Source: a virus. Taken from it: a DNA stretch of 64,000 nt. The position numbers and the translations under genes are program-made. The notes beneath the pieces are model-generated. The model worked only from the letters and a program-made list of their open reading frames with translations, was not told the DNA's origin and made no database searches. Shown piece after piece: positions 27,018-50,612 of this stretch. The stretch lies in the IMG/VR virus record IMGVR_UViG_3300008266_000015; one strand, 5' to 3'. How positions within the stretch are numbered: the first letter of the stretch is position 1; every line of letters starts with the position of its first letter.

Positions 27018-27815
27018 ATGATAAAACTTACTCAACTATTACAAGAAGCACTTTCTAAACCCAAAGCCATAATCATGGCGGGAGGTGCTTCAGTAGGTAA
27101 ATCCACGGTACTTAAATCTATTGATCCTATAGTTAAAGATTTTGACAATCTAAACGCAGATAAATATGTTGAAGATAAAGATTCTCCAATGTATAGAAAT
27201 TTATCTGCTGCATCTACTCAAATTAGAAAAAAAGATTTACCAAACGCTATAAAAAATCAAAAAAATCTTATTTACGACACTACGGCCTCTAATTTATCTA
27301 CTTTACAACCAATTCTAGATGAATTAAATAGTAATGGGTATGAAACCATGATGATTATGGTTTATGCCCATCCTGTTGTTTCATTTCTAAGAAATTTTAA
27401 ACGTGAACGTAAAGTACCAGCTGTAGGTGTTTTAGGAACATGGGCTAATGTGTATAACTTATTAGACGAATATAAAAATATATTTGGTGATAAATTTATA
27501 TTGGTAAATTCTCCATCTGGACCTGAAGAACAAAAAGAAATAGCCAATTTTGAAAAAGCATACCAAGATGGCAAACTATCAGAATACTTTAATAGTTTAT
27601 TATCTACAGGAGAATTCGCTTCTACTTTTAAAAAAGATGATACAACTCTATCTCCTGAAGAAAAAGAAAAAAGAGAAAAACAAAGAGAAAATACTCGTAA
27701 AACATTAGAAAAAAATATTGAAAAAATTTCTACCACATATGGAGATATTCAATCTAAATTAGACCCAATTGATAGTAAAGAGTTGCCTAATATTGTTAAA
27801 AACTTTGTTAAATGA
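27018..27815 (+). CDS. Zeta-toxin/AAA_33-like P-loop kinase with N-terminal head-targeting-like peptide
   Basis: MIKLTQLLQE|...AIIMAGGASVGKST...NAD...YDTT...RNFKRERKVP; start moved to the ATG at 27018, downstream of the promoter. Confidence 0.75.
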   Translation: MIKLTQLLQEALSKPKAIIMAGGASVGKSTVLKSIDPIVKDFDNLNADKYVEDKDSPMYRNLSAASTQIRKKDLPNAIKNQKNLIYDTTASNLSTLQPILDELNSNGYETMMIMVYAHPVVSFLRNFKRERKVPAVGVLGTWANVYNLLDEYKNIFGDKFILVNSPSGPEEQKEIANFEKAYQDGKLSEYFNSLLSTGEFASTFKKDDTTLSPEEKEKREKQRENTRKTLEKNIEKISTTYGDIQSKLDPIDSKELPNIVKNFVK

Positions 27816-29755
27816 ATTTTTTAGTTAGAGAACTTATACAACCTATATTAGAGGACTTTCAAATTGAAATGCCCCAATCTAATGAGGTAGTAGCTTTGTT
27901 TGGTGGTGGATTTAAACCACCCACAAAAGGACATTTTGATGTTGTTAAACAAACACTTGAAAACCACCCAAATATAACTGAATTTCAAATAGCAATAGGA
28001 GGAGGTACTCGAGACGGTATCACTCCTGAAATGTCTATGAAAATCTGGGAAATATACAAACCATTACTTTCAGATAAAGTAAAGTTAATTTCAACTTCAT
28101 CTCCACTTACATATATTAAAGACTATATCAAGGAAAACTCAGATACAGAAATATATGCTGTGGTGGGTGCTAGAGAGGGAGATGAACAAGATGCTAAAGA
28201 TTTTGAACAACGTAAAACTCTATATAAAAAATACGGAAATAAAGTTACTGTTTTAAAATCAGAAGCCGAAAACAGCATTAGTGGAACTAAAGCACGTAAG
28301 GCACTATCTGATAATAATTTTGAGGAATTTATAAAATATTTACCTAGTGAATTAGATTCTGATACCCAACAACAAGTATGGAGCATTTTAGGTAAAGAAA
28401 AAATAGAGGAAATGTCTCAAATGGCTATCCAATCAGTTGAAGATTTTGCGGATAAAGAATTAAACCCACTAGACATAGAATTTACCAGTCATTTCTTTGA
28501 TAGATTAGTAGATCCTAGAAACATTAAGCCTATTTCATCAGCTGAACTTATTGGGTTTTTTAAACGCTTAGCTAAAAAGAAAAAACAATTATTTGATTTT
28601 CTTTCTAAATATAAAGAAATAGTAGCCACAGATAATCGTACAGATATTAATATACCACTGGTTAAGCAAGCAAATACTGCTATTGCTAAAACTATAATGC
28701 GTAAAAAAGATTTCAAAACACCTGATCCTAAAATTGAATTTAGTGAGAGTTTAAATGAAAGTGTAAACGATTCATTTGATGATTCTTTAAATTCATTAAT
28801 CAGATATATGGTTGATCAAGGTATGGATATTCAACCATTACCTACATTAAAAATCATAGACAACGATGTAGAAAACGCTAATAACGTTTTAGGTAAAACA
28901 GCGTACTACGATCCAAATAATTGTTCTATAACGCTTTATACGCTGAATAGACATCCAAAAGATATATTACGTTCATTTTCTCATGAAATGATTCATCGTA
29001 TTCAAGATAATGAAGGTAGATTAAATAATGTAACTACTAATGATACTAATGAAGATGGAGATTTACCTGAATTAGAAAGAGAAGCATATTTAAAAGGAAA
29101 CATGACATTTAGAAATTGGGAAGATTCAATTAAAAATCAAAAATATATTAGAGAATATAAAGAGTATGCTTTAAATGAACTATTTGAAAAAGACTTACCT
29201 AATATAGAAAAATTAAATAGTGTAGAGTATTTAGTAAGCAATGGAGATGATATTGAAGCAAAATATTATTTTAGATTAGATGAACCTGATTTAAATAAAT
29301 GGTCAATACATTGGAATTTTACAAATAATAACAAAAATACATCTCCTGAGGCTTGGAAACAAATAACTACTACCTCATTTAAAATATTAAAAGATTTTAT
29401 AAATAATAAAAAACCAAACTACATTTCTCTCTCAGGGAATGAAAATAAAAGTGGTAAAAATGCTAAACTAAACATATATAAATCTAAATCATTTTTAGAA
29501 AAACTTGAAAATATATTTAATAATCAATATTTAATTAAAAATGATGATGAATCTATGGTTTTAATGAAATCAATAGAAGAAGCATATAAGTATGCCATAA
29601 ATGAAAGTGTTAAGTATGGTGGAGAAAAATATGAAGATGTTTTATATTATTGGCAAAATTTAGATATAAATTCTAAAAGTAAAATAGAACGTTGGAATGC
29701 CACTAAACGTAAAGTGAAAAGAGAAGTTTTACAAGAAATTTACCAAATTAAATGA
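27812..29755 (+). CDS. Multidomain protein: HxGH nucleotidyltransferase, HFFDR domain, HExxH zincin-like domain and C-terminal domain
   Basis: FGGGFKPPTKGH...ISGTKAR; FTSHFFDRLVDPRN; RSFSHEMIH...EREAY. Confidence 0.75.
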   Translation: MNFLVRELIQPILEDFQIEMPQSNEVVALFGGGFKPPTKGHFDVVKQTLENHPNITEFQIAIGGGTRDGITPEMSMKIWEIYKPLLSDKVKLISTSSPLTYIKDYIKENSDTEIYAVVGAREGDEQDAKDFEQRKTLYKKYGNKVTVLKSEAENSISGTKARKALSDNNFEEFIKYLPSELDSDTQQQVWSILGKEKIEEMSQMAIQSVEDFADKELNPLDIEFTSHFFDRLVDPRNIKPISSAELIGFFKRLAKKKKQLFDFLSKYKEIVATDNRTDINIPLVKQANTAIAKTIMRKKDFKTPDPKIEFSESLNESVNDSFDDSLNSLIRYMVDQGMDIQPLPTLKIIDNDVENANNVLGKTAYYDPNNCSITLYTLNRHPKDILRSFSHEMIHRIQDNEGRLNNVTTNDTNEDGDLPELEREAYLKGNMTFRNWEDSIKNQKYIREYKEYALNELFEKDLPNIEKLNSVEYLVSNGDDIEAKYYFRLDEPDLNKWSIHWNFTNNNKNTSPEAWKQITTTSFKILKDFINNKKPNYISLSGNENKSGKNAKLNIYKSKSFLEKLENIFNNQYLIKNDDESMVLMKSIEEAYKYAINESVKYGGEKYEDVLYYWQNLDINSKSKIERWNATKRKVKREVLQEIYQIK

Positions 29756-30288
29756 AATATAAATTAACAGACATATATAAGCAAATTAGGGAAGAGGAAA
29801 CAGCTGCCCAAGTAGCACAATATAAAATATTTTGTGATATGGATGGCGTGTTATGTGATTTTGATAGACGATTTGAACAATTTGGAGGAATGTCTCCTAA
29901 AGAATACGAATCAAAATATGGCATTAAAGAATTTTGGGAACTTATAGATAAAAAAATAGGTGTTCAATTTTGGTCTAAAATGCCATGGATGTCTGATGGT
30001 AAACAACTTTGGGACTATATTAAAAAATATAACCCATCTTTACTCTCAGCTCCTTCTAGAGAAGCATCTTCTCGCTATGGAAAACATTTGTGGGTAAAAG
30101 AAAATATACCTGGGACTAAATTAATTTTAGCAAATAGAGAAAAGAAAAAAAATTATTCTGGAAAAAATCGAATACTTATCGACGATCGCCCTGATAATAT
30201 TAATGAATGGAAGGCCACAGGAGGTATAGGTATTTTACATACTTCAACATCAAATACAATTAACGAATTAAAGCAACTAGGATTATGA
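29752..30288 (+). CDS. HAD 5'(3')-deoxyribonucleotidase (NT5C-like)
   Basis: CDMDGVLCDF, LSAP, LIDDRPDN. Confidence 0.85.
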   Translation: MKYKLTDIYKQIREEETAAQVAQYKIFCDMDGVLCDFDRRFEQFGGMSPKEYESKYGIKEFWELIDKKIGVQFWSKMPWMSDGKQLWDYIKKYNPSLLSAPSREASSRYGKHLWVKENIPGTKLILANREKKKNYSGKNRILIDDRPDNINEWKATGGIGILHTSTSNTINELKQLGL

Positions 30289-30935: not shown

Positions 30936-30938
30936 TTT

Positions 30939-31508: not shown

Positions 31509-31512
31509 AGTC

Positions 31513-32133: not shown

Positions 32134-32139
32134 ACACAA

Positions 32140-32147
32140 TATTTATA
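32140..32147 (+). promoter_or_regulatory. Late promoter motif TATTTATA
   Basis: Recurrent motif. Confidence 0.7.
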
Positions 32148-32160
32148 ATAAAATACAAAG

Positions 32161-32679
32161 ATGAAAGAATTTGAAAGAATGCAGAAGTTAGCTTTTGGCA
32201 ACACAATTCCAGCATTAAAACATATTGAAAATCAACCAGTTTCTTTAACTGAAAATGCACTTAAAGCTAAAATTAAAGAACTAGTACATTCATCTTTAGG
32301 TGAAGCTAAGAAAAAGAAAAAAGAAGAAGATGTAGCTCCCCAAGAAGATGTAAATATAGAAATGGATGCTACTGAAGAAATACCTGGAGATACTATGGCA
32401 CCTGAATCAGTAGATGGAGCAGATATTGATCCAACAGTTAAATCAATCCAGGATTCATTACAAAAAGCATTTGCTCAAGCTAAAACATTGGGTGATGAAA
32501 AACTTATCGCTCAAATTGGTAATACAATTACTATGCTTGTTAGAACACAAGTATTAGGTGGGCAACAAGTAGCTGAATCATTAAATGAAGAAGAAACAGA
32601 TTATCAAGAAGGATACAGACATGGATACAATAACGGATATAGAGATGGTGTAGAAGGAGAAGAAAAAGAAAAATTTTAA
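32161..32679 (+). CDS. Putative internal head protein with scaffold-like peptide
   Basis: N-terminal FERMQKLAFG; SLTE, SLGE and SLNE sites. Confidence 0.75.
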   Translation: MKEFERMQKLAFGNTIPALKHIENQPVSLTENALKAKIKELVHSSLGEAKKKKKEEDVAPQEDVNIEMDATEEIPGDTMAPESVDGADIDPTVKSIQDSLQKAFAQAKTLGDEKLIAQIGNTITMLVRTQVLGGQQVAESLNEEETDYQEGYRHGYNNGYRDGVEGEEKEKF

Positions 32680-32705
32680 TAAAAACAAATAAAAACAAAC
32701 AATTT

Positions 32706-32879: not shown

Positions 32880-32880
32880 A

Positions 32881-34973: not shown

Positions 34974-34976
34974 GGT

Positions 34977-35684
34977 ATGGAACGTATTAAACAACTTATT
35001 CGAGAAGTACTTTCTACTCCACCCAAGAAAGAATCATGTAACTGTGGTTGCCATTCTTGTGAAAACGTAGGAAATAAAGGTCCAGTTCTAAACGAAAGCT
35101 TAAATGCTAAAATCGTAATGACTGAAAACATGAAATATCATGTTGACAACAGATTACCACTTACAGAAAACACATTTCGTTATGGCTCACAAGCATTCTT
35201 AGATTTATGGGCTGAAGCTCGTTATCTATATTCTCGTAATGCTATTCATGTAAATGATGACGATAAAGAAATTTTACTTGAAACTAATTTAGGTGAATAC
35301 GGAATGTATGAAGGTAAAAAAGTGCCTTTAGATTTACCTATGTTAGAAGATGATTCATTAGCGGCTGATGAAGAGGAAATAGCTGACGAACCTATATCTG
35401 AAACTGATAAAAAGAAAAACCCACCAATTGGAAAACCAAAACGTGGTGGTTCTAAAAAGTTTTATGTATATGTTAGAGACAAAGGTAAAATTAAAAAAGT
35501 ATCATTCGGGGGAACTACCGGATTGTCTGTTAAAATAAATGATCCTAAAGCAAGACAAGCTTTTGCCGCTCGCCATAGATGTGCTCAAAAAACAGATAGG
35601 ACAAAACCTAGTTATTGGTCATGTAGAATCGGTCGTTATTGGAAGCAATTAGGAGGAGCAAAAAACTTTAGCGGATATTGGTAG
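34977..35684 (+). CDS. Putative internal head protein with basic C-terminal domain (DUF5754-like)
   Basis: KKFYVYV...KKVSFG...FAARHRC...YWSC; N-terminus MERIKQLIRE. Confidence 0.7.
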   Translation: MERIKQLIREVLSTPPKKESCNCGCHSCENVGNKGPVLNESLNAKIVMTENMKYHVDNRLPLTENTFRYGSQAFLDLWAEARYLYSRNAIHVNDDDKEILLETNLGEYGMYEGKKVPLDLPMLEDDSLAADEEEIADEPISETDKKKNPPIGKPKRGGSKKFYVYVRDKGKIKKVSFGGTTGLSVKINDPKARQAFAARHRCAQKTDRTKPSYWSCRIGRYWKQLGGAKNFSGYW

Positions 35685-35721: not shown

Positions 35722-36348
35722 ATGGCGTATGTTTATATTGTAATCAATAAAGTTAATGGGAAAAAATATATTGGTTCCTCTCGAAAATCCCAAATAGATG
35801 AAAATTATTATGGTAGCGGCAAAGCAGTAAAAGATGCTCTAAAGAAATATGGTAAAGAAAATTTTATAAGAGAAATACTGTGGGAGGGTGAAGGAAATGC
35901 TCGCGATATAGAAACATGTTATTTAATAAAATTTAATGCTTCTAAGAATCCAATGTTTTATAATATGACTAATGATGCTAGAGGAAATGATCTTCATAAA
36001 GAAGAAACAAAACTCACTGTTAGTGAAAAACTAATTGGGAGAAAATTTACGAAAGAGAGATGTGACAAAATATCTAAAGCTAAGAAAGGATCCACAACCT
36101 CTAAAAAAGGCAAACCTGATGGCCCCAAACCAGGAGTATCAGAAGCTCATAAAGGTAGAATTAGTCCTAATAAAGGAAAAGGAAATCAAGTAGCTTTATA
36201 TACAATATCTGAAGAATATATCAGAACTTATTCTAGTTACTATGACCTAGCTATTGATCTCCAAATAAATCCAGAAACAGTAAGATGTCAACTTATTGGA
36301 AAATCTCAAACTATTAAAAATAAGCAATATAAAGCGCAATATGTATGA
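35722..36348 (+). mobile_element. Free-standing GIY-YIG homing endonuclease with NUMOD-type DNA-binding repeats
   Basis: AYVYIVINKVNGKKYIGS...YYGSG...FYN; KISKAKKG and SEAHKG repeats; C-terminal HTH. Confidence 0.8.
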
Positions 36349-36363: not shown

Positions 36364-36741
36364 ATGAAACTATTAGAACTTAAAAAACTTATTCAAGAAG
36401 AACTACGTATAATACGTGAAAGTTCTGCTTCAAAACTTTATAAAGTAGAAGGACTATTAGTAACAAATACTGATAAAAAAACACAATCCCAAATACTTTC
36501 AGATATTAGATCAATCCCAGGTATCACAACAGTAGATGCTCAAGAATATACTCCTCGTTTACCTAAAAAAGGATACACATACGATAGATTAACCATCAAG
36601 GTTGATCCATACCCATACATTAAAAAAGACGGTAAATTTGATATAGAAACGATTAATCAAGTAATCGCAAGTATTGGTGGGATTAAAGGAATAGTTAAAT
36701 TTAGAGTTGATAACCCCCAATTAATTAATATTGGGATATGA
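36364..36741 (+). CDS. Putative internal head protein
   Basis: MKLLELKKLIQEELRIIRE leader; ferredoxin-like/ACT-like body. Confidence 0.7.
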   Translation: MKLLELKKLIQEELRIIRESSASKLYKVEGLLVTNTDKKTQSQILSDIRSIPGITTVDAQEYTPRLPKKGYTYDRLTIKVDPYPYIKKDGKFDIETINQVIASIGGIKGIVKFRVDNPQLINIGI

Positions 36742-37121
36742 TTAAGTTAATTAATCTTCTAGAACAAATTCTTCAAGAGAAAGCTGATCGCTGTAAGCGT
36801 ATTGCTGATCGTAAGTACGATAAACCATCTGCTTACAAATCAGGTGCTATCGTTAGATGTCGTAAAGGTAATATTTGGAAGGATTTAAAAGAAGAAGAAT
36901 TAAATGAAAAAGTAAAAGAAACACTTCGTACTTGGTTTAAACGTAAAGGTGCACCAGGTAAAGAAGGCGGATGGGTTGATTGTAATACTTGTAGAGACGG
37001 AAAATGTAAATCATGTGGTAGAAAAGAAGGTGAAAAACGTTCTAAATATCCTTCATGTCGTCCTACACCAGCTCAATGTAAAACACCTGGTAAAGGTAAA
37101 AAATGGGGGAAAACAAAATGA
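36738..37121 (+). CDS. Basic Cys-rich putative internal head protein
   Basis: MIKLINLLEQILQE leader; SAYKSG, WVDC, CGR and YPSCRP modules. Confidence 0.75.
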   Translation: MIKLINLLEQILQEKADRCKRIADRKYDKPSAYKSGAIVRCRKGNIWKDLKEEELNEKVKETLRTWFKRKGAPGKEGGWVDCNTCRDGKCKSCGRKEGEKRSKYPSCRPTPAQCKTPGKGKKWGKTK

Positions 37122-37387: not shown

Positions 37388-37641
37388 AGCCATACACAGA
37401 CATAGAAGTTACAGACAAATATGTTATTCGTGAATTTAACGAAAATATAGATCCAATTGAGCTTCTTTGGCATCGCGATAATGAAGATCGCACATTAGAA
37501 ATAGTTGGTGAAACAGATTGGAAAATACAATTAGATAATAAATTACCAATCTTACTAGAAAGTCATATATTTATACCAAGACACGCATGGCATCGTGTTA
37601 TTAAAGGAACAGGAACATTAAAATTAAAAATATACAAATGA
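37384..37641 (+). CDS. Small cupin-fold protein
   Basis: WHRDNEDR...FIPRHAWHRVIKG. Confidence 0.7.
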   Translation: MKPYTDIEVTDKYVIREFNENIDPIELLWHRDNEDRTLEIVGETDWKIQLDNKLPILLESHIFIPRHAWHRVIKGTGTLKLKIYK

Positions 37642-38171
37642 AATCAACTGAATTAAGACAACTTATCCGCGAATCAATCAATGAATATATTCGTGAAATC
37701 GATGAAGCAGGAACAAAAGCTGGATTACAAGCTAAAATAGAAGCAACTGAAGGTGCTATTAGCAAACGTGAAAAAATGGCTAATATGGAAGGCATTGATG
37801 AAGCTTATCATGAAATGCTTGATAAAGGCAAAATGAAAGAAATTGGTAATGAAGTTAAGGCATTAAAAAAAAGTTTAGATAAATTGAAAAAACAATTAGA
37901 TAAACTTAATTCAAAAGGTACTAAAACTGAAAAACCTGAATCTGAAGAAAAAGAAATTGTTGATGAAGTAAATATTGATGAAACATTTCCTGAATCTGGT
38001 GCTCAACTAGAAGAAGATAATAATGAGGATTTACCCCCTGCACCATCAGAAGAGGAAATAGCAGCTAATCAAATATACGAAATGCTCCATATGCAAAAAC
38101 TAGCAGGTATTATTTCAGAATCTGAATATGTTGCTAAAGTAAAAGAAGTAGAAAAAGCATCTAAAAAATAA
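37638..38171 (+). CDS. Putative internal head protein
   Basis: MKSTELRQLIRESINE leader; C-terminal MLHMQKLAGIISE. Confidence 0.75.
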   Translation: MKSTELRQLIRESINEYIREIDEAGTKAGLQAKIEATEGAISKREKMANMEGIDEAYHEMLDKGKMKEIGNEVKALKKSLDKLKKQLDKLNSKGTKTEKPESEEKEIVDEVNIDETFPESGAQLEEDNNEDLPPAPSEEEIAANQIYEMLHMQKLAGIISESEYVAKVKEVEKASKK

Positions 38172-39709: not shown

Positions 39710-40375
39710 ATGGAATTAAGAAAATACATCCGCGAAATGGTTGAGACTGAGCTTGATGAAATGGCTCGTATCTCTACTAACATCAAAATTGGTGATCCTG
39801 AAAAAGCATCCATTGCAAAAGAGCTATATGCTGGAACTTGGTATGGTGATATGATTGATTATGTAGAGGAAGCAGGAGACGTTGGTATTCCTCAACCTGA
39901 ACTAGCAAGAATGTTAGGTAAATCAGGCCAACAAGCAATCAATCCCAAAGTTAGAGATTTCCTTGAATCAAACATCTTCACTAAAGGTGAGTTATCAGTA
40001 GCTAAAAAAGAAAAACCAGAAGCTAGTGGTATTAAAGGTCGCCCAACCTCAGAAAAAACATTAATGGCTAAAGATGTTAATTCTAAAATGGAAGCAGATG
40101 CTAACTATAAACCATCAGAAGATGAATTAGCAATATTGGGGGCTGAGTTTATTGAAAAACTTAGAGCACGTGTTAAAGGTACTTTAAGACGTGGTCGTCC
40201 TGCACTTCCTTCTAAAGCAAAAGATGGCATGATAGCAGCTATGAAAAAAATAGGAGATGAAGATATAGACATGGATGGGGATATTGATGATGAGGATTTG
40301 GAAGATATTGCTGAATCAACTTCAATTAATGAATCGTTTACTCGTATGCAGAAATTAGCAGGAATTATTAAATAA
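39710..40375 (+). CDS. Putative internal head DNA-binding protein (wHTH plus AT-hooks)
   Basis: Leader MELRKYIRE; GIPQPELARMLG; KGRP and RRGRP; C-terminal FTRMQKLAGIIK. Confidence 0.75.
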   Translation: MELRKYIREMVETELDEMARISTNIKIGDPEKASIAKELYAGTWYGDMIDYVEEAGDVGIPQPELARMLGKSGQQAINPKVRDFLESNIFTKGELSVAKKEKPEASGIKGRPTSEKTLMAKDVNSKMEADANYKPSEDELAILGAEFIEKLRARVKGTLRRGRPALPSKAKDGMIAAMKKIGDEDIDMDGDIDDEDLEDIAESTSINESFTRMQKLAGIIK

Positions 40376-41244: not shown

Positions 41245-42075
41245 ATGAAACGCAAAGAACTATATAACTATATTCGTGAAGAAATTGTAAATGAGTTAAC
41301 TACTGTTACTAAAAATACTGATCAAAGTGAAGTTTCAACAATTTCTAAAGCAGAAAATGTACCTACAACTACCGTTTCTAATGCTATTAAGAAAGCCAAA
41401 TCATCCGGTCAAGATGTAAATATAGCTGAGATGGCTCGTACTGCAAATAATATTAAAATTGGAGACCCAGCTAAAGTAACTCTACTTAGAAAATTATATG
41501 GTGGAACATGGAAAGGAAATATGTTAGATGCAGTAGAAAAAGCAGGTGAAGCAGGTATTTCTCAACTTGAATTAGCTTTAGCAGTTGGTAAAAAAAGTCA
41601 ACCCGAAATTAATCCTGCCGTAAACGAATTTCTTAAAGTAGGTGCGTTTGCATTATCTAAAATTGCAGGTGCAGCCGCAGAACCAACTATTGCTCCTTCA
41701 TCTGAAGAAGAAGAATGGATGGCGGACGCTGATGTACAAGATGATTGGGAAAAAGTTGAAGATGAAGATGAAGATATAATGGATAAAGGTCCATCAGCCG
41801 CAGATATCAAAGCAGCTGAAAAATCAGTTAAGAAAGTAGCAGGTGGTAAAGGATACGCTAAACAATTACCTCCTGAAGATGAAGAAAAATATGAACGATT
41901 GAAAAAGGGAATTGAAACTAAAATCTCCAAAATTAAGGCTCTTCAAAAACCCAAAAGAGCATCATCAAATGATATGCAGGTACTTAAAGCTTTAATTAAT
42001 CGAGATGATGTTAAAAAACTATTTAAAGCTAAAGGTGTTAGTATAACTGACTTAGTAGCAGATATCATATCATGA
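41245..42075 (+). CDS. Putative internal head wHTH protein, paralog of 39710
   Basis: MKRKELYNYIREEIVNE leader; EMARxxxNIKIGDP domain shared with 39710. Confidence 0.75.
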   Translation: MKRKELYNYIREEIVNELTTVTKNTDQSEVSTISKAENVPTTTVSNAIKKAKSSGQDVNIAEMARTANNIKIGDPAKVTLLRKLYGGTWKGNMLDAVEKAGEAGISQLELALAVGKKSQPEINPAVNEFLKVGAFALSKIAGAAAEPTIAPSSEEEEWMADADVQDDWEKVEDEDEDIMDKGPSAADIKAAEKSVKKVAGGKGYAKQLPPEDEEKYERLKKGIETKISKIKALQKPKRASSNDMQVLKALINRDDVKKLFKAKGVSITDLVADIIS

Positions 42076-42656
42076 TAAATCAAAACCGATTTTATTTAAT
42101 TATCATAGGAATACTAACTATAATTCTGTTAATGCAAAAATGTGGAGGGGGATGTAATTTTATTCCCGTTCTTCCACCTCCTGTAACCATTAGAATAGTA
42201 GATACTGTTTATACAGTAACTACAAAGGAGATTCCTACTTATGTCCCAAAATGGAAAACAATTACTAAATACGTTCATGATACAATTGAAACCGTGGATA
42301 CTACATATGTTATTGGGGACTACTACTCTACTTATTTTTATCAAGATTCATTAATTAATGATACATTATGTTTTTACATTAATGATTCAATCTCAGAAAA
42401 CAAAATCAAATCAAGAGATTTAAAATATATAATGTCATTTCCAACTATAAAAATACACGATATAGTAATTCAAAATAAAAACGAATATTATGTTGGTTTA
42501 GGATTAATTGGAAATCAAAAAGGAATTAATTATTTTGGTCCTGAATTTTTATTGAAAACTAAGAAAAAAGATGTTTATGGAATAGGAATAGGAATGGATG
42601 GAAATCTAAAACCTAACCTAAGTCTAAGAACATATTGGAAAATAGGCAAAAAATGA
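42072..42656 (+). CDS. Membrane-anchored protein with C-terminal amphipathic beta strands (spanin-like candidate)
   Basis: N-terminal TM/lipobox-like segment, multiple D-T/S-x sequons, ends in beta strands YWKI. Confidence 0.55.
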   Translation: MINQNRFYLIIIGILTIILLMQKCGGGCNFIPVLPPPVTIRIVDTVYTVTTKEIPTYVPKWKTITKYVHDTIETVDTTYVIGDYYSTYFYQDSLINDTLCFYINDSISENKIKSRDLKYIMSFPTIKIHDIVIQNKNEYYVGLGLIGNQKGINYFGPEFLLKTKKKDVYGIGIGMDGNLKPNLSLRTYWKIGKK

Positions 42657-44227
42657 GTCAACCAGATCTTAAACAAATTATAAGGGATGAATATATTAAG
42701 TGTGCAAAAGATCCAGCACACTTTATGCGTAAATACTGTTATATACAACATCCACAACGTGGGCGAGTTATATTTAATTTATATCCGTTTCAAGGTAAAG
42801 TACTAAATTTATGGAAAGACAATCCATATTCAATGGTACTTAAATCTAGACAGTTAGGTATATCAACATTAGCAGCAGGATATTCTTTATGGTTAATGAC
42901 ATTCCATAAGGATAAAAATATTCTTTGTATAGCTACTAAGCAGGATACTGCTAAAAATATGGTTACTAAAACCAAGTTTATGTATGATAATTTACCATCA
43001 TGGCTTAAAGTAGAATCTGAAGAAAATAATAAATTAACATTACGATTAATTAATGGTTCTCAAATCAAAGCAACCTCAGCAGCAAGTGATGCTGGTCGAT
43101 CAGAAGCCGTTTCGCTTCTAATTATAGATGAGGCTGCATTTATTGAAGGTATTGAGCCAATTTGGGCTTCAGCTCAACAAACCCTAGCAACAGGTGGTGG
43201 TGCAATTGTATTATCAACACCTTTTGGTACAGGTAACTGGTTCCATAAAACATGGGTTAAAGCAGAAGCACAAGATAATAACTTCTTACCTATTAAATTA
43301 CCTTGGTATGTTCATCCTGAACGTGATCAAGCTTGGAGAGATAAACAAGATGTAGAATTAGGTGATCCTAGATTAGCAGCACAGGAATGTGATTGCGATT
43401 TTACTACATCTGGGGATGTAGTTTATTATCCAGAACACATTGAATATATGATGTCTACTCACGTAGTAGAACCATTAGAGCGTCGTGGGGTAGATGGAAA
43501 TTTATGGGTTTGGGAATCACCAGATTATACTAGAAGTTATATAGTAATAGCAGATGTTGCTAGAGGAGATGGAAAAGATTTTTCTGCATTTCACGTATTT
43601 GATATAGAAACAAATGCCCAAGTAGCAGAATTTAGAAGTCAACTTCCACCTAAAGAATTTGGATATCTATTAGTAGCCATTGCTACAGAATATAATGAAG
43701 CACTATTAGTAATTGAAAACGCAAATATTGGCTGGTCAGCTATAGATTCAGTAATAGAAAGAGGATATAGAAATCTATATTATTCACCTAAAAGTGATGT
43801 TGCAACTTCTGATTCGTATATTAACAGATACGAAGATACATCCAAAATGACCCCAGGTTTTACTACATCATTAAAAACACGTCCTTTAGTAATTAACAAA
43901 GGTCGTGAATATTTTGGAGATCATAGTGTAATTATTCGATCAAAACGTTTGATTGAAGAAATGAAAGTATTCATTTGGAAAAATGGTCGAGCAGAAGCCC
44001 AATCTGGATATAATGATGACTTAGTTATGGCTTATAGTATAGGAATGTACTTAAGAGATACAGCATTAAAAAACAAACAGCAAGGATTAGAATTAACAAG
44101 AGCAACATTAAATAATATATCAAGAATATCTCCACAACAAGGTGCTTATTTTGCAACGGGAATGGACAATCCATATTCTATGAAGGTAAATGGAGAAGGA
44201 AATGAGGATATTAGTTGGCTTTTATGA
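42653..44227 (+). CDS. terL: Terminase large subunit (gp17-like)
   Basis: LYPFQ, KSRQLGIST Walker A, IIDEAAF Walker B, STP, ADVARG, DDLVMA. Confidence 0.95.
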   Translation: MSQPDLKQIIRDEYIKCAKDPAHFMRKYCYIQHPQRGRVIFNLYPFQGKVLNLWKDNPYSMVLKSRQLGISTLAAGYSLWLMTFHKDKNILCIATKQDTAKNMVTKTKFMYDNLPSWLKVESEENNKLTLRLINGSQIKATSAASDAGRSEAVSLLIIDEAAFIEGIEPIWASAQQTLATGGGAIVLSTPFGTGNWFHKTWVKAEAQDNNFLPIKLPWYVHPERDQAWRDKQDVELGDPRLAAQECDCDFTTSGDVVYYPEHIEYMMSTHVVEPLERRGVDGNLWVWESPDYTRSYIVIADVARGDGKDFSAFHVFDIETNAQVAEFRSQLPPKEFGYLLVAIATEYNEALLVIENANIGWSAIDSVIERGYRNLYYSPKSDVATSDSYINRYEDTSKMTPGFTTSLKTRPLVINKGREYFGDHSVIIRSKRLIEEMKVFIWKNGRAEAQSGYNDDLVMAYSIGMYLRDTALKNKQQGLELTRATLNNISRISPQQGAYFATGMDNPYSMKVNGEGNEDISWLL

Positions 44228-44244
44228 CTTTAAATAAATAAATA

Positions 44245-46110
44245 ATGGCAGATACAAGTATTTTTACTAGATTAAAAAGATTATTTTCAACTGATGTCAT
44301 CATCCGTAATGAGGGTGGGAATCAAATTAAAGTAATGGATGTTGATTCAATTCAACAAAGTGGACAATATAAAAACAATTCATTAATTGATAGATATAGT
44401 AGGATATATTCCGCGAATGCTACCTCACTTTATGGTCAACAATTAAATGTTAACTATCAATATTTAAGAGCCCAATTATACTCAGATTACGATGTAATGG
44501 ATAATGATGCAATTGTTGCTTCTGCTCTAGATATAATCTCAGATGAATGTACATTAAAAAATGAGATGGGTGAGGTACTTCAAATTCGTAGTTCAGATGA
44601 AGATGTACAAAAAATTCTTTATAACTTATTCTACGATGTTTTGAACATAGAATTTAATATGTGGTCGTGGATTCGTCAAATGAATAAATATGGTGATTTC
44701 TTTTTAAAATTAGAAATCGCTGAAAAATTTGGAGTATACAATGTTATTCCTTATACCGCATATCATATCATGCGCCAGGAGAATTATGATAAAGAAAACC
44801 CTTCAGCAGTAAGGTTCGCATTTTCTCCTGATGGATATGTTGGTGGAACTGCAGGTCAATATCCTGTCCCTAACCAGAGGCAAGATGAAGCAAATGGGAT
44901 TTATTTTGATAATTATGAAATGGCTCATTTTAGATTATTAACTGATGTTAACTATCTTCCTTATGGTCGTTCATATATTGAACCAGCTCGTAAATTATTT
45001 AAACAATATGTGTTAATGGAAGATGCTATGTTGATTCATAGAATCTCTCGTGCCCCAGAAAAACGTATTTTTTATATCAATGTTGGTGCTATTCCTCCTA
45101 ATGAAGTAGAAAACTTCATGAAGAAGACTATTACCACAATGAAAAAAACACCATATATAGACGAAAAAACAGGTGAATATAATTTAAAATATAACATGCA
45201 AAACATGTTGGAAGATTTTTATATTCCTGTTCGCGGTAATGATCAAACAACTAAAATTGATACCACTAAAGGTTTAGAATATAATGGTATTGAAGATGTA
45301 GCTTATTTAAGAGATAAATTGTTTGCTGCTTTAAAAGTACCTAAAGCATTTATGGGTTATGAGAAAGACTTAACTGGTAAAGCAACATTAGCGGCTGAAG
45401 ATATTCGTTTTGCTCGTACAATTGATAGATTACAACGTATTGTACTTTCTGAATTATATAAAATAGCATTAGTGCATTTATATACTCAAGGGTATAGAGG
45501 CGAAACATTAACTAATTTCGAACTTTCGTTAACTACCCCATCAATTATATACGATCAAGAACGTATTGCATTAATGAAAGAAAAAGTAGATTTAGCTAAA
45601 AATATCATGGAAGCCCAACTACTGCCTACAGATTGGATCTACCATAATGTATTCCACTTTAGTGAAGATCAATTTGATGAATATAGAGATCTTATTATAC
45701 AAGATGCTAAGCGTAAGTTTAGATTAGGTCAAATTACTGAAGAAGGAAATGATCCATTAGAAACAGGAAAATCATATGGTACACCACATGATTTAGCTTC
45801 ACTTTATGGTAAAGGCAGGACAATGACAGATCCAGGAAATGTACCTGATGGATATGCTACTGATGTAGAATTAGGTCGTCCTAAAGAAAAAGTTACAAAT
45901 ATCAATACTCAAGATAATACTTTAGGAAAAGATAGATTAGGTAGACAATCAATGAAAGTAGATGATCAGCCTGATTTCAATAACAAACCTATCAATGAGA
46001 TTACATATCTAAAAAATAAACAGTTTTTAAATGAAATAGAAAAAAAATTAGTTTTCCAAATAGATAAAGCAAAAGAATCATTACTTGATGAAAATCAATT
46101 GCGAGATTAA
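44245..46110 (+). CDS. Portal protein (T4 gp20-like)
   Basis: LMEDAMLIHRISRAPEKRIFYINVG, EDFYIPVR, ALKVPK. Confidence 0.95.
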   Translation: MADTSIFTRLKRLFSTDVIIRNEGGNQIKVMDVDSIQQSGQYKNNSLIDRYSRIYSANATSLYGQQLNVNYQYLRAQLYSDYDVMDNDAIVASALDIISDECTLKNEMGEVLQIRSSDEDVQKILYNLFYDVLNIEFNMWSWIRQMNKYGDFFLKLEIAEKFGVYNVIPYTAYHIMRQENYDKENPSAVRFAFSPDGYVGGTAGQYPVPNQRQDEANGIYFDNYEMAHFRLLTDVNYLPYGRSYIEPARKLFKQYVLMEDAMLIHRISRAPEKRIFYINVGAIPPNEVENFMKKTITTMKKTPYIDEKTGEYNLKYNMQNMLEDFYIPVRGNDQTTKIDTTKGLEYNGIEDVAYLRDKLFAALKVPKAFMGYEKDLTGKATLAAEDIRFARTIDRLQRIVLSELYKIALVHLYTQGYRGETLTNFELSLTTPSIIYDQERIALMKEKVDLAKNIMEAQLLPTDWIYHNVFHFSEDQFDEYRDLIIQDAKRKFRLGQITEEGNDPLETGKSYGTPHDLASLYGKGRTMTDPGNVPDGYATDVELGRPKEKVTNINTQDNTLGKDRLGRQSMKVDDQPDFNNKPINEITYLKNKQFLNEIEKKLVFQIDKAKESLLDENQLRD

Positions 46111-46122
46111 TATTTTTTCATA

Positions 46123-46130
46123 TATTTATA
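46123..46130 (+). promoter_or_regulatory. Late promoter motif TATTTATA
   Basis: Recurrent motif. Confidence 0.7.
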
Positions 46131-46148
46131 ATTAAAATAAACATTTAG

Positions 46149-47009
46149 ATGTTAATTAAACATTCGAAATTTAAAAACACAGGTATTTTATTCGAGCTTT
46201 TAGTACGACAAATTACCTCAGATACTCTATCTGGCAAAACATCAGAGGCTACTAATATTCTAAAAAAATACTTTAGTAAAACTGAGCTAGGAAGAGAGTA
46301 TAAATTGTATGATAGTTTACTTAAACGCACCAACTTAACCGAAGGTAAAGCTGAAGTTGTCATTAGTACAATTTTAGAAAGTGCAAAACAGCTAAATCGC
46401 TCAGCTCTTAAGAGACAAAAATATAATTTAATTAATGAGATTAAAGATCACTATAGTTTAGAGGAATTTTTTAAAACAAAACTCCCTCATTATAAATCTC
46501 AAGCCGCTATTTATACATTAATAGAATCAACGGGTAGTGATAAAAAACAATCTCACGAGCAGATTATTACTAATAGATTAGTACTGTTGGAACATTTAAC
46601 TTCCTCTACAAAAAAGACAAACAAGCCTAAAGATAGTATTATGGAAGAGTTTTCTCAATATGATAGAGATACTCGTATTTTAACATATAGAATTTTATTA
46701 GAAAAATTCAATACCAAATACTCAGATTTCAGCACTAATAAAAAATTAATACTTAAAGAATTCATCAATAGTGTAGATAACACAGATAAATTAAAAATAT
46801 TCTACAATTCTAAAATTGGTGAAATGAAAAATGAATTAGTTTCGTTAAATAAAAAAACTAAAAACCAAGTTACTAAAATTAAAATAAATGAAGTAGCAAC
46901 GTTTTTAGTTGGGTTGGGAAAAAACGATAAAGTAAATAACGAACATATAGTAAATCTACTTCAATATTGTGATTTGCTAGAAGAACTTCAACAAGCTAAT
47001 GGAAAGTAA
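46149..47009 (+). CDS. Head-module hypothetical protein
   Basis: Helical 286 aa between portal and protease. Confidence 0.75.
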   Translation: MLIKHSKFKNTGILFELLVRQITSDTLSGKTSEATNILKKYFSKTELGREYKLYDSLLKRTNLTEGKAEVVISTILESAKQLNRSALKRQKYNLINEIKDHYSLEEFFKTKLPHYKSQAAIYTLIESTGSDKKQSHEQIITNRLVLLEHLTSSTKKTNKPKDSIMEEFSQYDRDTRILTYRILLEKFNTKYSDFSTNKKLILKEFINSVDNTDKLKIFYNSKIGEMKNELVSLNKKTKNQVTKIKINEVATFLVGLGKNDKVNNEHIVNLLQYCDLLEELQQANGK

Positions 47010-47808
47010 CGACCCAAAAAAATCATTCGAATTAACACCATCAGAAACAGATCCTGAAACAGGTAGAGTTACTTTTGATGTTAAATACAATGCTGACTTC
47101 CCAGGAATATATAAAGCATTTAAAAAGCTTAACGAAGAATATAAGAAATTTTTATTATTTGATGAAGTAAAAAAAGATCCTAAATTTAAAGAGATATATA
47201 AAGGATTTAATTACTTATTCAATCAATATAAATCTCACATGAGGGAAAATTATCCTAAACAATATAGTCTTTTAAAAGCAGCAAACGAGGAAATGTTAAA
47301 GGAACTCGTTCAAAATTATTTAAAAGAAATGAGTGCCACAGGAGCAGGAGTAAATGCAGCTACTTATACATCAGGACAAAGTGAAAACACAGCTCAGAAA
47401 TATGCTTTTAATCCAAATAAAAAAGCAAAAGGAGCCCAAAATATCTATTACTATAAATTAGGATGGAAACCAGTTGATGCTGAAAAACTTCATAAGCAAG
47501 CCAAAGGTTTAGAACATAAAGATCTATGGACTAAAAAATTAGAAGAAAACGAATCAACTGACTCATACATAAATTCATTAAACATACAAGATCCGTCGTT
47601 AAAACAATTTATTGACACCAGAATGACCGATTTTGATAAGATTGAGGACAAATTAAATACATTACTTCCGTTGCTTAAAAGTGCTAAAACCGATACAATG
47701 GAATATTACAAAACCAATCCTGATTTTAAAATCAAATACGGTACCGATTTGGCAGTAGATTATTTAGATGATTTAATAACTTTATTTAAAGAAAAAAAAA
47801 TAACATGA
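46999..47808 (+). CDS. Putative internal head/prohead core protein
   Basis: Modules separated by YLKE|MSATG and KLEE. Confidence 0.7.
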   Translation: MESNDPKKSFELTPSETDPETGRVTFDVKYNADFPGIYKAFKKLNEEYKKFLLFDEVKKDPKFKEIYKGFNYLFNQYKSHMRENYPKQYSLLKAANEEMLKELVQNYLKEMSATGAGVNAATYTSGQSENTAQKYAFNPNKKAKGAQNIYYYKLGWKPVDAEKLHKQAKGLEHKDLWTKKLEENESTDSYINSLNIQDPSLKQFIDTRMTDFDKIEDKLNTLLPLLKSAKTDTMEYYKTNPDFKIKYGTDLAVDYLDDLITLFKEKKIT

Positions 47809-49814
47809 CACTTCAAGAACAATATAACTCAATTAAGAGTGGCAACGGAAATAAAGACCAATTCTTAAAACACGCTCGTAGCTTATTTCCAGAATACTTT
47901 AATCAATATACTGACTTTAATACAGCAACTAATGTATTGAAATCAAAACAAATCATTAGCGAAGCAGCAGGTGGTGTTGTAGCTAAAGGATTTGATATCT
48001 ACGATTGGAAGAAAATTTTAGCTGAAGAGGTTAAAGCCGAAGAAAAAGAAACTTCAAAAGAAGTTAAAGATAAACAAGCACACGCCTACGATAATTCAGA
48101 CACTAAAAATGCTGACAATATTAATTTCAATGAAATCATGAAAGGCTTTTATGCTGAAATGAGAGATGAGAAAAATGCTGGAAAAACAGGTGATGAAATT
48201 AAAGCTATGGTTGTTAAAAACTTAGCTAAGGATCCTTTATTCTATACTAAAGACGGAATGTTTGGAGTTAAAGGTGTAGGATATACAACTGAAGCTCCTG
48301 GTTTAGGTGAACCTAAAGAACCAAAAGGCAAACATAAAGCATCAGGATATGGTGATTTAGATACTGAAGTAAAAATTAAAGAGCCAAAATCAAATGTTCA
48401 AGACTCATTAGGTGATCAAGAAGCAGAAACTACAATGCCTAAAAAAGTAAAAGAAATGCCTGACAAAGGTGTTACTGGTGTAGAAAAGAGAATCAAATTA
48501 AAAGAAAATATCCAAGATAGAGCAGATGCAATTAATGATTTTGCTCGTTTAGTAAAAACAGGAACAAATGATGAGATAGCTAATACTTTTGAAAATAATA
48601 GAGATTACGAAACAACTATTAAAGTTTCCGAAATGATAAAAATCCTAAAAAAATATGGAAAATATGATGATATAATGAGCATGATAGATGATGATTTCAC
48701 CGATCCTGCTGGTGGAAGAGGTTTATCTAGTCATTTAGAAGAAAAAATTGGTATGTTCAATGATCCTATAGGATATAAAAAATCTGGATTAAGTGATATA
48801 GATAAAATGTTTACTAAGGAATTACAAAAAGACAATACATATACCATATATAAGAATGGAAAGATAGTAAAAACTGGAATTGAAGGTACTGGTAATGCTA
48901 ATGCATGGATAAATGATGAAATGAGAAAATTAAAAGAAGCAATGGATCAAGGTCCTGTATCTATTAAAGGAAAAACAGGTCCAACTGGTGGAACACAAAA
49001 GATTCCCCGTGCTTTATTTTTAGATAAAGAAGTAATTAGTACGATAAATGATGCTCAACCTGGAAGTATTAAATTAATTTCCAAACCAGGAGATAAACGT
49101 GTGTATATGTATGTTTCTTCATTTGTTAAAAATGCTTTAGATGAATTAGAGAGAGGTCGTTCTAGTAGAGAAAAACTTAAAAAACAATCTAAATTAGCAG
49201 ATGTACTTGCTGATAAACTTCCATCTGCTATTAGAGGTAAAATTAAAAAAGAAATTAATCCTAAAATGGATTCTGGTTTAAAAATGCATTATGTTGATTT
49301 AAATATATCTCCTAAAAAAGATAAAACAGGATATTGGGTTTTAGCTAAAGGTGAAAGTGCACCATTGGTAGCAGAACAAAAACTTCGTTCATTGATTCGT
49401 AATCTTATTAAGGAAGAATTAGTAAACGAAATATCACCTGAACTCTTTAAAAGAGCAACTGATGTATCTCGCGAACGAGGTCAAGATCGTAGAACAATGA
49501 ATATGGGTGAAACATTTTTTAACAAATTCAAAGGTAGACCTTTAATGGGTAGTACTATTGCAGATGTATCTTATGCTAAACCACAATCCGGTGATTATGA
49601 AGAAGTTATTGTAAAAATTGAAGTACCTTCATCTGTTGTTCCTGGCGAGACAAAATTTAGATTTATTTACTATGATGTTAGAAAAGACCAATGGGGTGTA
49701 GATAAAGAAATAACTAGAGCAGACGCTCGTATATTATCACTTATAGCTCAACATATCAATCCTGACACTCGATACAAATCAGGTGGTGAAGGATTCCAAA
49801 TTAAAGGATACTAA
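47805..49814 (+). CDS. Large modular putative internal head protein
   Basis: Many [LI]xE-bounded modules; EQKLRSLIRNLIKEELVNE; NLAKDPLFYTK. Confidence 0.7.
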   Translation: MTLQEQYNSIKSGNGNKDQFLKHARSLFPEYFNQYTDFNTATNVLKSKQIISEAAGGVVAKGFDIYDWKKILAEEVKAEEKETSKEVKDKQAHAYDNSDTKNADNINFNEIMKGFYAEMRDEKNAGKTGDEIKAMVVKNLAKDPLFYTKDGMFGVKGVGYTTEAPGLGEPKEPKGKHKASGYGDLDTEVKIKEPKSNVQDSLGDQEAETTMPKKVKEMPDKGVTGVEKRIKLKENIQDRADAINDFARLVKTGTNDEIANTFENNRDYETTIKVSEMIKILKKYGKYDDIMSMIDDDFTDPAGGRGLSSHLEEKIGMFNDPIGYKKSGLSDIDKMFTKELQKDNTYTIYKNGKIVKTGIEGTGNANAWINDEMRKLKEAMDQGPVSIKGKTGPTGGTQKIPRALFLDKEVISTINDAQPGSIKLISKPGDKRVYMYVSSFVKNALDELERGRSSREKLKKQSKLADVLADKLPSAIRGKIKKEINPKMDSGLKMHYVDLNISPKKDKTGYWVLAKGESAPLVAEQKLRSLIRNLIKEELVNEISPELFKRATDVSRERGQDRRTMNMGETFFNKFKGRPLMGSTIADVSYAKPQSGDYEEVIVKIEVPSSVVPGETKFRFIYYDVRKDQWGVDKEITRADARILSLIAQHINPDTRYKSGGEGFQIKGY

Positions 49815-49818
49815 AATT

Positions 49819-50436
49819 ATGAAGCCATTACTTATAGAAGTCACCCCATTCAATGTATCACCTAAATCACTTACTGAGTCTCGTGATAGGATATCTGGCA
49901 ACCCAATAGTTGAAGGGATATTAGCTACCTGTGAAGTAAAAAATGGTAATGGTAGATATTATGCTAAAGAGTTATGGGAACGTGAGATAGATAAGTATAT
50001 GGATATGGTTAGAGAAAATAGAGCTCTAGGTGAACTAGACCATCCAGATTCTCAAATCATTAACTTAAAAAATGTCTCCCACAATATTAAAAAAATATGG
50101 TGGAAAGGAGATATGGTAATGGGTGCAATTGAAATTCTACCTACACCATCAGGAAATATCCTTAAAGCATTAATTGAATCAGGTATTAAGGTAGGTGTTT
50201 CATCTCGTGGAATGGGTAGTTTAAAACAAGTAGGTGAAGTATTAGAAGTACAAGATGACTTTGAACTACTATGTTTTGATTTTGTTTCCACACCTTCAAA
50301 TCCAGGTTCATGGATGCATCCTGTAGGACAAATACATGAGGGATTATCTACATCAATTAATTCAAACCCCTATTCTAAAGTTAATTCTATACTTACTGAA
50401 ATACTTTGTTCAAACGGTACTTGTCCAATATTTTAA
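49819..50436 (+). CDS. Prohead core protease (T4 gp21-like)
   Basis: KNGNGRYY, ALGELDHP, GVSSRGMGS, DFVSTPS; start at MKPLLIE. Confidence 0.95.
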   Translation: MKPLLIEVTPFNVSPKSLTESRDRISGNPIVEGILATCEVKNGNGRYYAKELWEREIDKYMDMVRENRALGELDHPDSQIINLKNVSHNIKKIWWKGDMVMGAIEILPTPSGNILKALIESGIKVGVSSRGMGSLKQVGEVLEVQDDFELLCFDFVSTPSNPGSWMHPVGQIHEGLSTSINSNPYSKVNSILTEILCSNGTCPIF

Positions 50437-50438
50437 CT

Positions 50439-50612
50439 ATGGAACAACAACAATCAAATGAAGAATTTCTCCATATGCAAAAACTTGCAGGTTTAATTAC
50501 TGAAGAAGAATATAAAGCTCATTTATGGTATGATCAATATCTTAAAAATATATCTAAATCTTTTGAAAAATTAAAACAAACATTAAAAGATGAAGGTCAT
50601 GATATTAAATGA
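50439..50612 (+). CDS. Small head protein with scaffold-like peptide
   Basis: MEQQQSNEEFLHMQKLAGLITEEEY; start moved to 50439. Confidence 0.7.
   Translation: MEQQQSNEEFLHMQKLAGLITEEEYKAHLWYDQYLKNISKSFEKLKQTLKDEGHDIK

Follow-up and report, generated by a model that had tools for sequence, protein, structure and literature searches.

Candidate T4-type capsid-targeting leaders on enzymes and other proteins of an uncultured distant relative of phage T4

Background

In bacteriophage T4 a short capsid-targeting sequence (CTS), carried by IPI, IPII and IPIII, which are internal proteins, and by Alt (and also by gp24), is cut off by gp21, the prohead protease (Mullaney and Black 1996, reviewed in PMC9026906, PMC3012670, PMC5694885), and mutations in the CTS have linked residues 4 and 7 with targeting and residues 8 and 10 with processing (PMC9026906). 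In the same phage the capsid protein gp23 is cut after Glu65, and gp67, gp68 and gp22 are parts of the core that are degraded. In the giant phages phiKZ, 201phi2-1 and SPN3US many head-internal proteins are cut after Glu by a gp21-related protease, and their propeptides are thought to target these proteins into the prohead (PMC5694885, PMC7411985). Our literature searches turned up no account of CTS-like leaders outside the T-even and giant phages. Here we analyze a stretch of 64,000 nucleotides from the IMG/VR virus record IMGVR_UViG_3300008266_000015 (the window, by which we mean the whole stretch of DNA analyzed), where a first-pass annotation had pointed to proteins with an amphipathic N-terminal leader ending in [LI]-x-Glu. 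Based on sequence comparisons we propose that these leaders probably constitute a T4-type system of capsid targeting and protease release in a new clade of phages, with more bearers and leader classes than in T4 and with enzymes among the cargo. Leader counts are limited to the window, and gene and leader coordinates refer to its + strand.

Results and discussion

A short N-terminal leader of fixed lengths

All nine leaders cited in the first-pass annotation were found, on the genes starting at 11887, 27018, 29752, 34977, 36364, 36738, 37638, 39710 and 41245. The strict pattern that we derived, hydrophobic-x-x-hydrophobic-[LIV]-[KRQ]-E with its start among the first 20 residues, is present in 9 of the 76 window proteins, compared to a mean of 0.66 after shuffling within the N-termini (none of 5000 shuffles reached nine), and its rate at N-termini is nine times that at internal positions. 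The pattern was picked after seeing the data, but the excess is nevertheless large, and the enrichment was seen with N-terminal composition controlled. When P2 is left free, 12 proteins match against 2.6 expected (0 of 3000 shuffles), with equal windows placed deeper in the proteins yielding five matches at residues 31-52 and two at residues 61-82. As the codons vary among the leaders (AGG, CGA, CGC and CGT for the Arg at P2; CTT, CTA and TTA for Leu), the recurrence is to be ascribed to selection at the protein level and not to a repeated DNA element. The annotation had put the number of bearers at about 20. Approximately ten N-terminal leaders are firm, three enzymes are among the bearers, and the count rises to about 16-18 once class-D leaders (see below), internal copies and head-module proteins are added, so that a figure near 20 needs weak or internal cases.

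Four leader classes can be distinguished, all of which end in hydrophobic-[LI]-x-Glu: class A, of 12 residues (M-K-K-S-E-L-K-x-hydrophobic-I-K-E type); class B, of 10 residues (M-I-x-L-x-x-[IL]-L-x-E); class C, of 12 residues (M-x-N-F-D-L-K-K-Y-L-x-E); and class D, of about 22 residues, which holds a copy of the C-terminal peptide of the scaffold and ends in I-[TS]-E. The same kinds of leader are found on orthologues and on other proteins in IMG/VR loci and in Flavobacterium phage vB_FspM_immuto (hereafter immuto), which can be cultivated on Flavobacterium sp. LMO8 and has about a dozen of them. Across 819 non-redundant N-termini of the clade, TerL excluded, we scored the residue two positions after a hydrophobic triple at i, i+3 and i+4: Glu occupies this place in 65% of cases when it falls on residue 12, in 57% when it falls on residue 9 and in 32% when it falls on residue 10, versus 0-15% at residues 8, 11 and 13-15 and 11% internally. 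While these counts are inflated by orthologues, the preference for fixed lengths is still clear, and leader length is quantised.

Comparison with the T4 CTS places these leaders close to the described system. The translations of T4 IPII and IPIII start with the published 10-residue CTS. In the class B leaders and the leader of 34977 the mapped positions agree with it, 4, 7 and 8 being hydrophobic and 10 being Glu, whereas class A displays the same spacing shifted two residues later. T4 gp24 has a near-identical 10-residue start ending in L-L-R-E, and the 9-residue start of T4 gp22, ending in I-A-E, has its counterpart in a 10-residue start ending in L-K-E on the window scaffold. Further likenesses are the S77 protease, the placement of a short modular tag on non-homologous proteins and the existence in T4 of an enzyme cargo, namely Alt. 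The two systems differ in that about ten bearers, as read from sequence, occur in 64 kb here compared to four or five in all of T4; in the four interchangeable leader classes, which include 12-residue forms and the copy of the scaffold C-terminus; in the second site that frequently follows the leader; in a cargo unrelated to the T4 internal proteins (a kinase, an NMNAT-like enzyme and a nucleotidase); and in the host, most likely one of the Bacteroidota. The giant-phage propeptides, with their [A/S/G]-x-Glu motif and a length mostly above 100 residues (PMC5694885), are a more distant comparison, and the window leaders, which have 9-20 residues and L, I or V at P3, show neither feature.

Sites like those of T4 in the prohead protease, the scaffold and the capsid protein

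The order of genes in the head module is that of T4 20-67-68-21-22-23. TerL (42653-44227) is followed by a T4-type portal protein (44245-46110; PF07230), by three unassigned head-module proteins between portal and protease (starting at 46149, 46999 and 47805), and then by the protease, a 57-residue protein (50439), a scaffold-like protein and the capsid protein. The homologue of gp21 that the first-pass annotation had reported is present as an S77 prohead protease (49819-50436), recovered with PF03420 (1.2e-30) and with the structure of T4 gp21 (5JBL; 1.7e-16). Its His75 and Ser128 align with His85 and Ser140 of the T4 enzyme, and it is apparently active. The protease itself has sites at residue 7 (L-I-E) and residue 194 (L-T-E), and its L-L-I-E, ending at residue 7, is aligned with the L-L-I-E of T4 gp21 that ends at residue 9.

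The acidic scaffold-like protein (50919-51893), with L-K-E at residue 10, was assigned to the gp22 position by gene order and composition, with no family match in Pfam and PHROG scans. It has an isoelectric point (pI) of 4.1 and 20 [LI]-x-E sites, a density of 6.1 per 100 residues where the proteome has 1.5. Seventeen scaffold orthologues keep a P-I-x-E followed by a C-terminal peptide of about 16 residues (window 51843-51890), near-copies of which are found in four other window proteins (32161-32205, 38085-38120, 40337-40372 and 50469-50504) and many times in relatives. These copies sit at N-terminal, internal or C-terminal positions, and end in I-[TS]-Glu wherever more sequence follows: in 37638 the copy (M-Q-K-L-A-G) spans residues 150-161, in 39710 the scaffold-like peptide forms the C-terminus, and several proteins hold both the scaffold peptide and an N-terminal leader of class A or B. 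In all, at least five leader proteins have such a copy. We posit that the copies may serve as a second capsid address that mimics the coat-binding end of the scaffold.

The Gp23-type capsid protein (gene 51934-53619; PF07068, 3.3e-75) has L-L-E at residue 9 and begins with a putative 60-residue propeptide (51934-52113). As the annotation had noted, L-V-V-E ends at residue 60, comparable to Glu65 of T4 gp23; Q-L-V-x-E is kept in 14 of 15 orthologues (Q-I-V-S-E in immuto), and the 15 orthologues are conserved through Glu60 and variable afterwards. In a hidden Markov model (HMM) alignment residue 28 of mature T4 gp23 falls on window residue 83, which places the mature N-terminus near residues 56-60. 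Taken together, the specificity of the protease and the layout of its substrates look conserved with T4 at the level of sequence.

The closest isolate is immuto, with 58% identity in the capsid protein by protein search; megablast of the head module against GenBank phages gave no match, and relatives were reached by protein search. Relatives of the TerL are encoded on at least 598 IMG/VR contigs, the best 80 being 70-88% identical. The + strand carries all long open reading frames (ORFs) of the window, and the G+C content is about 30%. The window phage is an uncultured distant relative of T4, and its host is most likely a member of the Bacteroidota of the Flavobacterium type. In related loci gene starts were called as the first ATG by a simple caller, and PHROGs offered no family for most leader bearers or head-core proteins.

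The leader is a module separable from the protein body

Several families combine one body with different leaders. In the family with the C-P-x-P-T-Q-N motif the leader is of class C or of class B depending on the phage; the shared body of the 32161 family comes with class D or with class C (M-D-N-F-D-L-K-K-F-L-K-E type); members of the 34977 family have a class A/B leader or start directly at a C-x-C-G-C motif; and the DUF5872 orthologues have dissimilar leaders, every one of which ends in Glu right before the conserved K-x-D-R-C body. BLAST with bodies only, among window proteins, recovered 39710 and 41245 as the sole related pair of bearers. A single-linkage group of 134 sequences that joined 33344, 39710, 41245 and 46999 is an artefact, as the window BLAST backs only the 39710/41245 pair. 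As judged from these comparisons the leader is a module separable from unrelated bodies. The annotation had further noted that recognizable domains begin after the leader Glu, and profile matches agree, starting at residue 11 for Zeta_toxin, at residue 15 for DUF5872 and at residue 26 for NT5C (23 in PHROGs).

Leader genes lie in probable late transcription units

The motif ATATTTATA has 16 copies in the window, 15 of them on the + strand (7.4 in shuffles), and is found 4-36 nucleotides ahead of tail, baseplate and head-core genes; we infer that it is a late promoter. Copies are located at 11874, 18290, 22146, 26962, 32139, 34965, 35701, 37567, 41221, 46122, 54397, 57444 and 62549, among others. 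An association of leaders with this promoter had been suggested for checking, and ATATTTATA does directly precede five of the nine firm leader genes (11887, 27018, 34977, 37638 and 41245; Fisher p = 0.009), with the remaining firm leader genes located downstream in the same ATATTTATA units. The motif often ends just 4-16 nucleotides before the ATG; were it a -10-like element, many of the late transcripts would be leaderless or close to it. Genes of the early region (window 380-2400) have another recurring upstream word, of the A-C-T-T-A-A-A-A-A-A-C type, 8-12 nucleotides before the ATG.

The leader-bearing proteins

Each site was given a leader score from a position-specific scoring matrix (PSSM). 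A class-B leader of 10 residues (M-I-x-L-x-x-L-L-x-E; 27018-27047) precedes a 265-residue zeta-toxin/PNK-like P-loop kinase (gene 27018-27815). Position 27018 is the first ATG within an ORF that opens at a TTG at 26982, and orthologues begin at the same Met; in eight orthologues of 28-92% identity M1, I2, L4, L7, L8 and E10 are invariant, and residues 11-14 are variable. The AlphaFold model has a mean predicted local distance difference test (pLDDT) score of 85 and a predicted template-modeling (pTM) score of 0.81 as a whole, with a pLDDT of about 50 for residues 1-10, and it suggests that the leader is not packed onto the kinase fold. The kinase scores 47.4 bits with PF06414 (cut-off 22.3); its best fold matches are zeta/PezT toxins with template-modeling (TM) scores of only 0.45-0.49, polynucleotide kinases fit the core equally, and no antitoxin partner for it was seen.

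The next gene (27812-29755) codes for a 647-residue NMNAT-like cytidylyltransferase fusion with a weak leader (27812-27853; V-R-E at residue 7, I-L-E at residue 14). Its nucleotide-binding motif starts near residue 30, and the orthologue in the related locus L091 has a clean 10-residue leader. The protein is multi-domain, with a weak match to a RegB-like stretch at residues ~207-266 and a zincin-type H-E-M-I-H motif at residue 391 (28982-28996) that is kept in immuto gp088. The latter protein has an extra N-terminal domain with G-D-L-D (by eye, like a Pol-beta-type nucleotidyltransferase), then a T-L-A-E site and then the NMNAT part. The third enzyme is a 178-residue NT5C-type 5'-nucleotidase (gene 29752-30288) with a 14-residue leader (29752-29793; PSSM 18.5). 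Position 4 of the NT5C profile aligns to its residue 26 and position 6 of PHROG 2643 to its residue 23, and orthologues retain an extension ahead of the D-M-D-G motif.

A 10-residue leader (34977-35006; PSSM 21.4) is present on a 235-residue protein with a Cys motif (gene 34977-35684). Its residues 144-217 correspond to PHROG 7595, a domain that also stands alone in Pelagibacter and Roseobacter podoviruses without an S77 protease. In Methylophilales phage Melnitz it forms the C-terminal end of a fusion with the cytidylyltransferase, and in pelagiphage HTVC008M its gene comes right after that of the enzyme. Two small basic proteins follow: one of 125 residues (gene 36364-36741) with a two-site leader (36364-36420; Glu12 and Glu19, PSSM 21.7 and 6.1) that is conserved in the related loci L082 and L084, whose mature part has a pI of 9.5 and no further [LI]-x-E; and a very basic DUF5872 protein of 127 residues (gene 36738-37121) with a 14-residue leader (36738-36779), where the Pfam match runs from residue 15. 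A gene for a GIY-YIG (SegE-like) homing endonuclease (35722-36348), with its own late motif, lies between two of these leader-bearing genes and is missing there in L082 and L084.

The top score (PSSM 24.5) belongs to a two-site leader (37638-37697; Glu12 and Glu20) on a 177-residue acidic protein (gene 37638-38171). The paralogues 39710 and 41245 have leaders with Glu9 and Glu17 (39710-39760; PSSM 22.8, on a 221-residue protein, gene 39710-40375) and with Glu12 and Glu17 (PSSM 20.4, on a 276-residue protein, gene 41245-42075), the latter leader being extended by a putative propeptide up to I-A-E at residue 62 (41245-41430 in all). Their common domain begins just after the L-D-E at 17 in 39710 and the I-A-E at 62 in 41245: BLAST aligns residues 71-146 of 41245 with residues 26-101 of 39710, and an M-A-R match reaches back to just after Glu62. 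No isolate homologue of 39710 was found by tblastn. The ninth leader, of 12 residues (11887-11922; PSSM 15.5), is on a 115-residue protein (gene 11887-12234) in the baseplate/tail region; a model built without it scores it at only 5.5, no orthologue was recovered among relatives, and it is the least secure of the nine.

The internal copies reported in the annotation fared unevenly. That in the 669-residue head-module protein 47805-49814 is real: it spans residues 524-542 (49374-49430) ahead of a 127-residue C-terminal part, is the best internal match in the window (PSSM 14.6) and is kept in the related loci L004 and L005. The acidic protein 32161-32679 combines a class-D-like N-terminus with an internal class-A-like site, L-K-A-K-I-K-E ending at Glu40 (32161-32280), for which L087 has a similar counterpart, whereas the copy in 30285, near its C-terminus, is weak. 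An additional leader-like site (47296-47328; L-K-E at 102, Y-L-K-E at 110) is internal to the head-module protein 46999-47808, and the part after Glu110 resembles, by eye only, immuto gp072, where the motif is N-terminal. A class-D leader ending in I-T-E at residue 22 (50439-50504) begins a 57-residue protein (gene 50439-50612), and immuto gp083 and several IMG/VR relatives likewise have this motif at the N-terminus. Three other candidates were rejected as bearers: 33344 has a similar helix with no Glu, 22832 has a P3 residue that is not conserved among orthologues, and in TerL the helix corresponds to a conserved TerL region, with the immuto orthologue lacking the Glu. The TerL helix is likened, by eye, to what we take to be the N-terminal region of T4 gp17. 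The N-terminal motif of TerL (42653-42694), with Asp here and Glu in many relatives, is kept clade-wide, and we read it as a chance match.

Tagged homologues in aquatic T4-like phages

NMNAT-like cytidylyltransferases are virion-associated in the T4-like cyanophages S-CREM2, S-SCSM1 and S-CBWM1, and their presence in virions is called frequent in the pertinent passages of the reports; those of S-CREM2 and S-SCSM1 have been found by mass spectrometry in CsCl-purified virions (PMC10665884, PMC9602691). The same passages of PMC10665884 and PMC9602691 draw no link to a targeting leader or to protease processing. We translated S-CREM2 ORF154, S-SCSM1 ORF91 and the Syn19 orthologue and observed that each starts with M-K-x-F-x-x-F-L-x-E and that a variable linker (about 25-95 residues) lies between this start and the enzyme domain; read from these translations, the start is the T4 CTS pattern. 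The cyanophage enzymes belong to the same family as the first domain of 27812, whose own leader, in contrast, is degenerate. As tblastn with the window NMNAT domain reaches only immuto, the cyanophage proteins were linked through Melnitz as a bridge. S-SCSM1 gp279 (L169:5308-5517), a virion protein of 69 residues, has a CTS-like word, T-F-K-E-F-L-E-Y-I-E, at its C-terminus.

In HTVC008M a homologue of the kinase (E = 8e-15) adjoins a cytidylyltransferase gene, and its I-L-K-E is aligned with the L-L-Q-E of the window kinase. The cytidylyltransferase-like genes of HTVC008M and Melnitz have similar short N-terminal extensions, that of HTVC008M without Glu at position 10, and in Melnitz similar leaders occur on the cytidylyltransferase fusion and on its neighbors. 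Given that both the leaders and the enzymes are shared with HTVC008M and Melnitz, the tagged enzyme set would be older than the split of these lineages.

A predicted mechanism and its alternatives

In light of the above, we propose that each tagged protein would be made late with an amphipathic N-terminal helix of 9-20 residues in which P7 and P4 are hydrophobic, P3 is [LIV] and P1 is Glu, and that this helix would dock the protein on the scaffolding core during prohead assembly. The S77 protease (49819-50436) would then cut after the Glu, and often again at a second [LIV]-x-Glu one to two helical turns further on, and this would free the mature protein inside the head, where it may be retained for delivery; the protease would meanwhile trim itself, the scaffold and the 60-residue propeptide of the capsid protein. 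The interpretation put forward in the first-pass annotation is partly supported, by comparison, through the residue architecture, the S77 protease, the matching sites in head proteins, the modularity and the late units; packaging, cutting and injection are predictions from it, and its figure of about 20 bearers is not supported.

Several observations weigh against this proposal. The pattern is not a classifier: a relaxed form of it run on 100 kb of T4 recovers five true gp21 substrates (gp24, gp68, Alt, IPII and IPIII) and misses IPI, gp67, gp22 and gp23, and it also matches about nine other annotated T4 proteins, just as in the window it also matches TerL and probably 22832. Starts of the M-K-K-S-E-L type cap helices well and are often found in small helical proteins like those of the HU/IHF family. 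The P3 residue of the capsid protein is Val rather than Leu or Ile, the leader of 27812 is degenerate with a PSSM score of only 8, and 11887 lies among baseplate genes. Literature searches turned up no paper on immuto virions and no cleavage or virion-content measurements for immuto or the window phage, and the cyanophage authors caution that abundant enzymes might co-purify with virions.

One alternative concerns the fate of the tagged proteins. Based on their being folded or basic proteins with few internal sites, we predict that the kinase, the NMNAT-like enzyme, the 5'-nucleotidase, the DUF5872 protein, 36364, 34977 and 39710/41245 are probably kept in the head as low-copy cargo; by analogy with T4 gp67 and gp68, the acidic site-rich bearers 37638 and 32161 are more likely extra core parts that would be degraded. 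It might instead be supposed that the leaders serve processing or scaffolding only, with the proteins entering the prohead to be cut and mostly degraded or expelled, or with the enzymes inactive until cut, and with little or no injected cargo. The acidic 37638, 32161 and 11887 would suit such a role, having 2.3-3.9 [LI]-x-E sites per 100 residues against the 1.5 of the proteome and the 6.1 of the scaffold, and T4 gp67, gp68 and gp22 behave in this manner. However, the enzymes and basic proteins have few internal sites, 0-2.2 per 100 residues against the 1.5 of the proteome, and the NMNAT-like homologues remain in mature cyanophage virions, and as an account of the whole set we regard this as unlikely.

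We likewise consider it improbable that the leader docks these proteins on some partner other than the capsid, such as a modifying enzyme like those acting on ribosomally synthesized and post-translationally modified peptides (RiPPs), a complex of nucleotide metabolism or the membrane. In favor of such a partner, three bearers are nucleotide/NAD enzymes with adjoining genes, and the tagged genes are interspersed with that of a FAD-type oxidoreductase (38299), which is syntenic in relatives. Yet no radical-SAM, RiPP-type or other tailoring family was recovered in Pfam scans of genes 27018-53619, nor was any RiPP-type enzyme (radical SAM or cyclodehydratase) found by PHROGs among the leader-bearing and head-module proteins; the bearers have 115-647 residues and several have enzyme folds, unlike the short precursor peptides of RiPPs. 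Moreover, the protease, the scaffold, the capsid protein and the head-core proteins share this motif, it matches the mutationally mapped positions of the T4 CTS, and NMNAT-like homologues are in virions.

Finally, that the leaders are generic capped amphipathic first helices in the K/E/L/I-rich proteins of an AT-rich phage, with no common partner and uncut, is quite unlikely, for although K, E, L and I are somewhat enriched at the N-termini relative to the bodies, the TerL motif belongs to a conserved region of the fold and the relaxed pattern produces many false matches in T4, composition-keeping shuffles fall far short of the nine observed, the Glu is confined to residues 9, 10 or 12, the family profiles of the enzymes begin past leaders that are swapped or missing on the same body, and AlphaFold leaves an invariant leader unpacked.

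Conclusions

Under the T4-type targeting and release that we favor, the CTS, known mainly from T-even coliphages and a few giant phages, would represent a conserved modular loading system across distant aquatic relatives of T4, with cargo sets bigger and more enzymatic than those of T4. The tag would then provide a simple sequence rule for predicting packaged, and possibly injected, proteins in the genomes of uncultured phages. Cyanophage NMNAT-like enzymes and kinases have repeatedly been found in purified virions and might be either cargo or contaminants; if the proposal is true, they bear an address tag of the T4 type, and the two could be told apart by a direct test.

More tentatively, the kinase, the NMNAT-like enzyme and the 5'-nucleotidase (27018-30288) could form a pre-made enzyme kit that is loaded by means of the leaders and injected with the DNA, which we put forward as a doubtful possibility. 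Parts of such a kit recur with similar leaders: HTVC008M has the kinase and the cytidylyltransferase, Melnitz the cytidylyltransferase along with an NT5C-like gene, and T4-like cyanophages have the cytidylyltransferase. If this is true, the kit would act before phage gene expression, for example by restoring NAD+ or by removing nucleotide signals of host defense, and delivery of metabolic or counter-defense enzymes by the virion would be widespread among aquatic T4-like phages.

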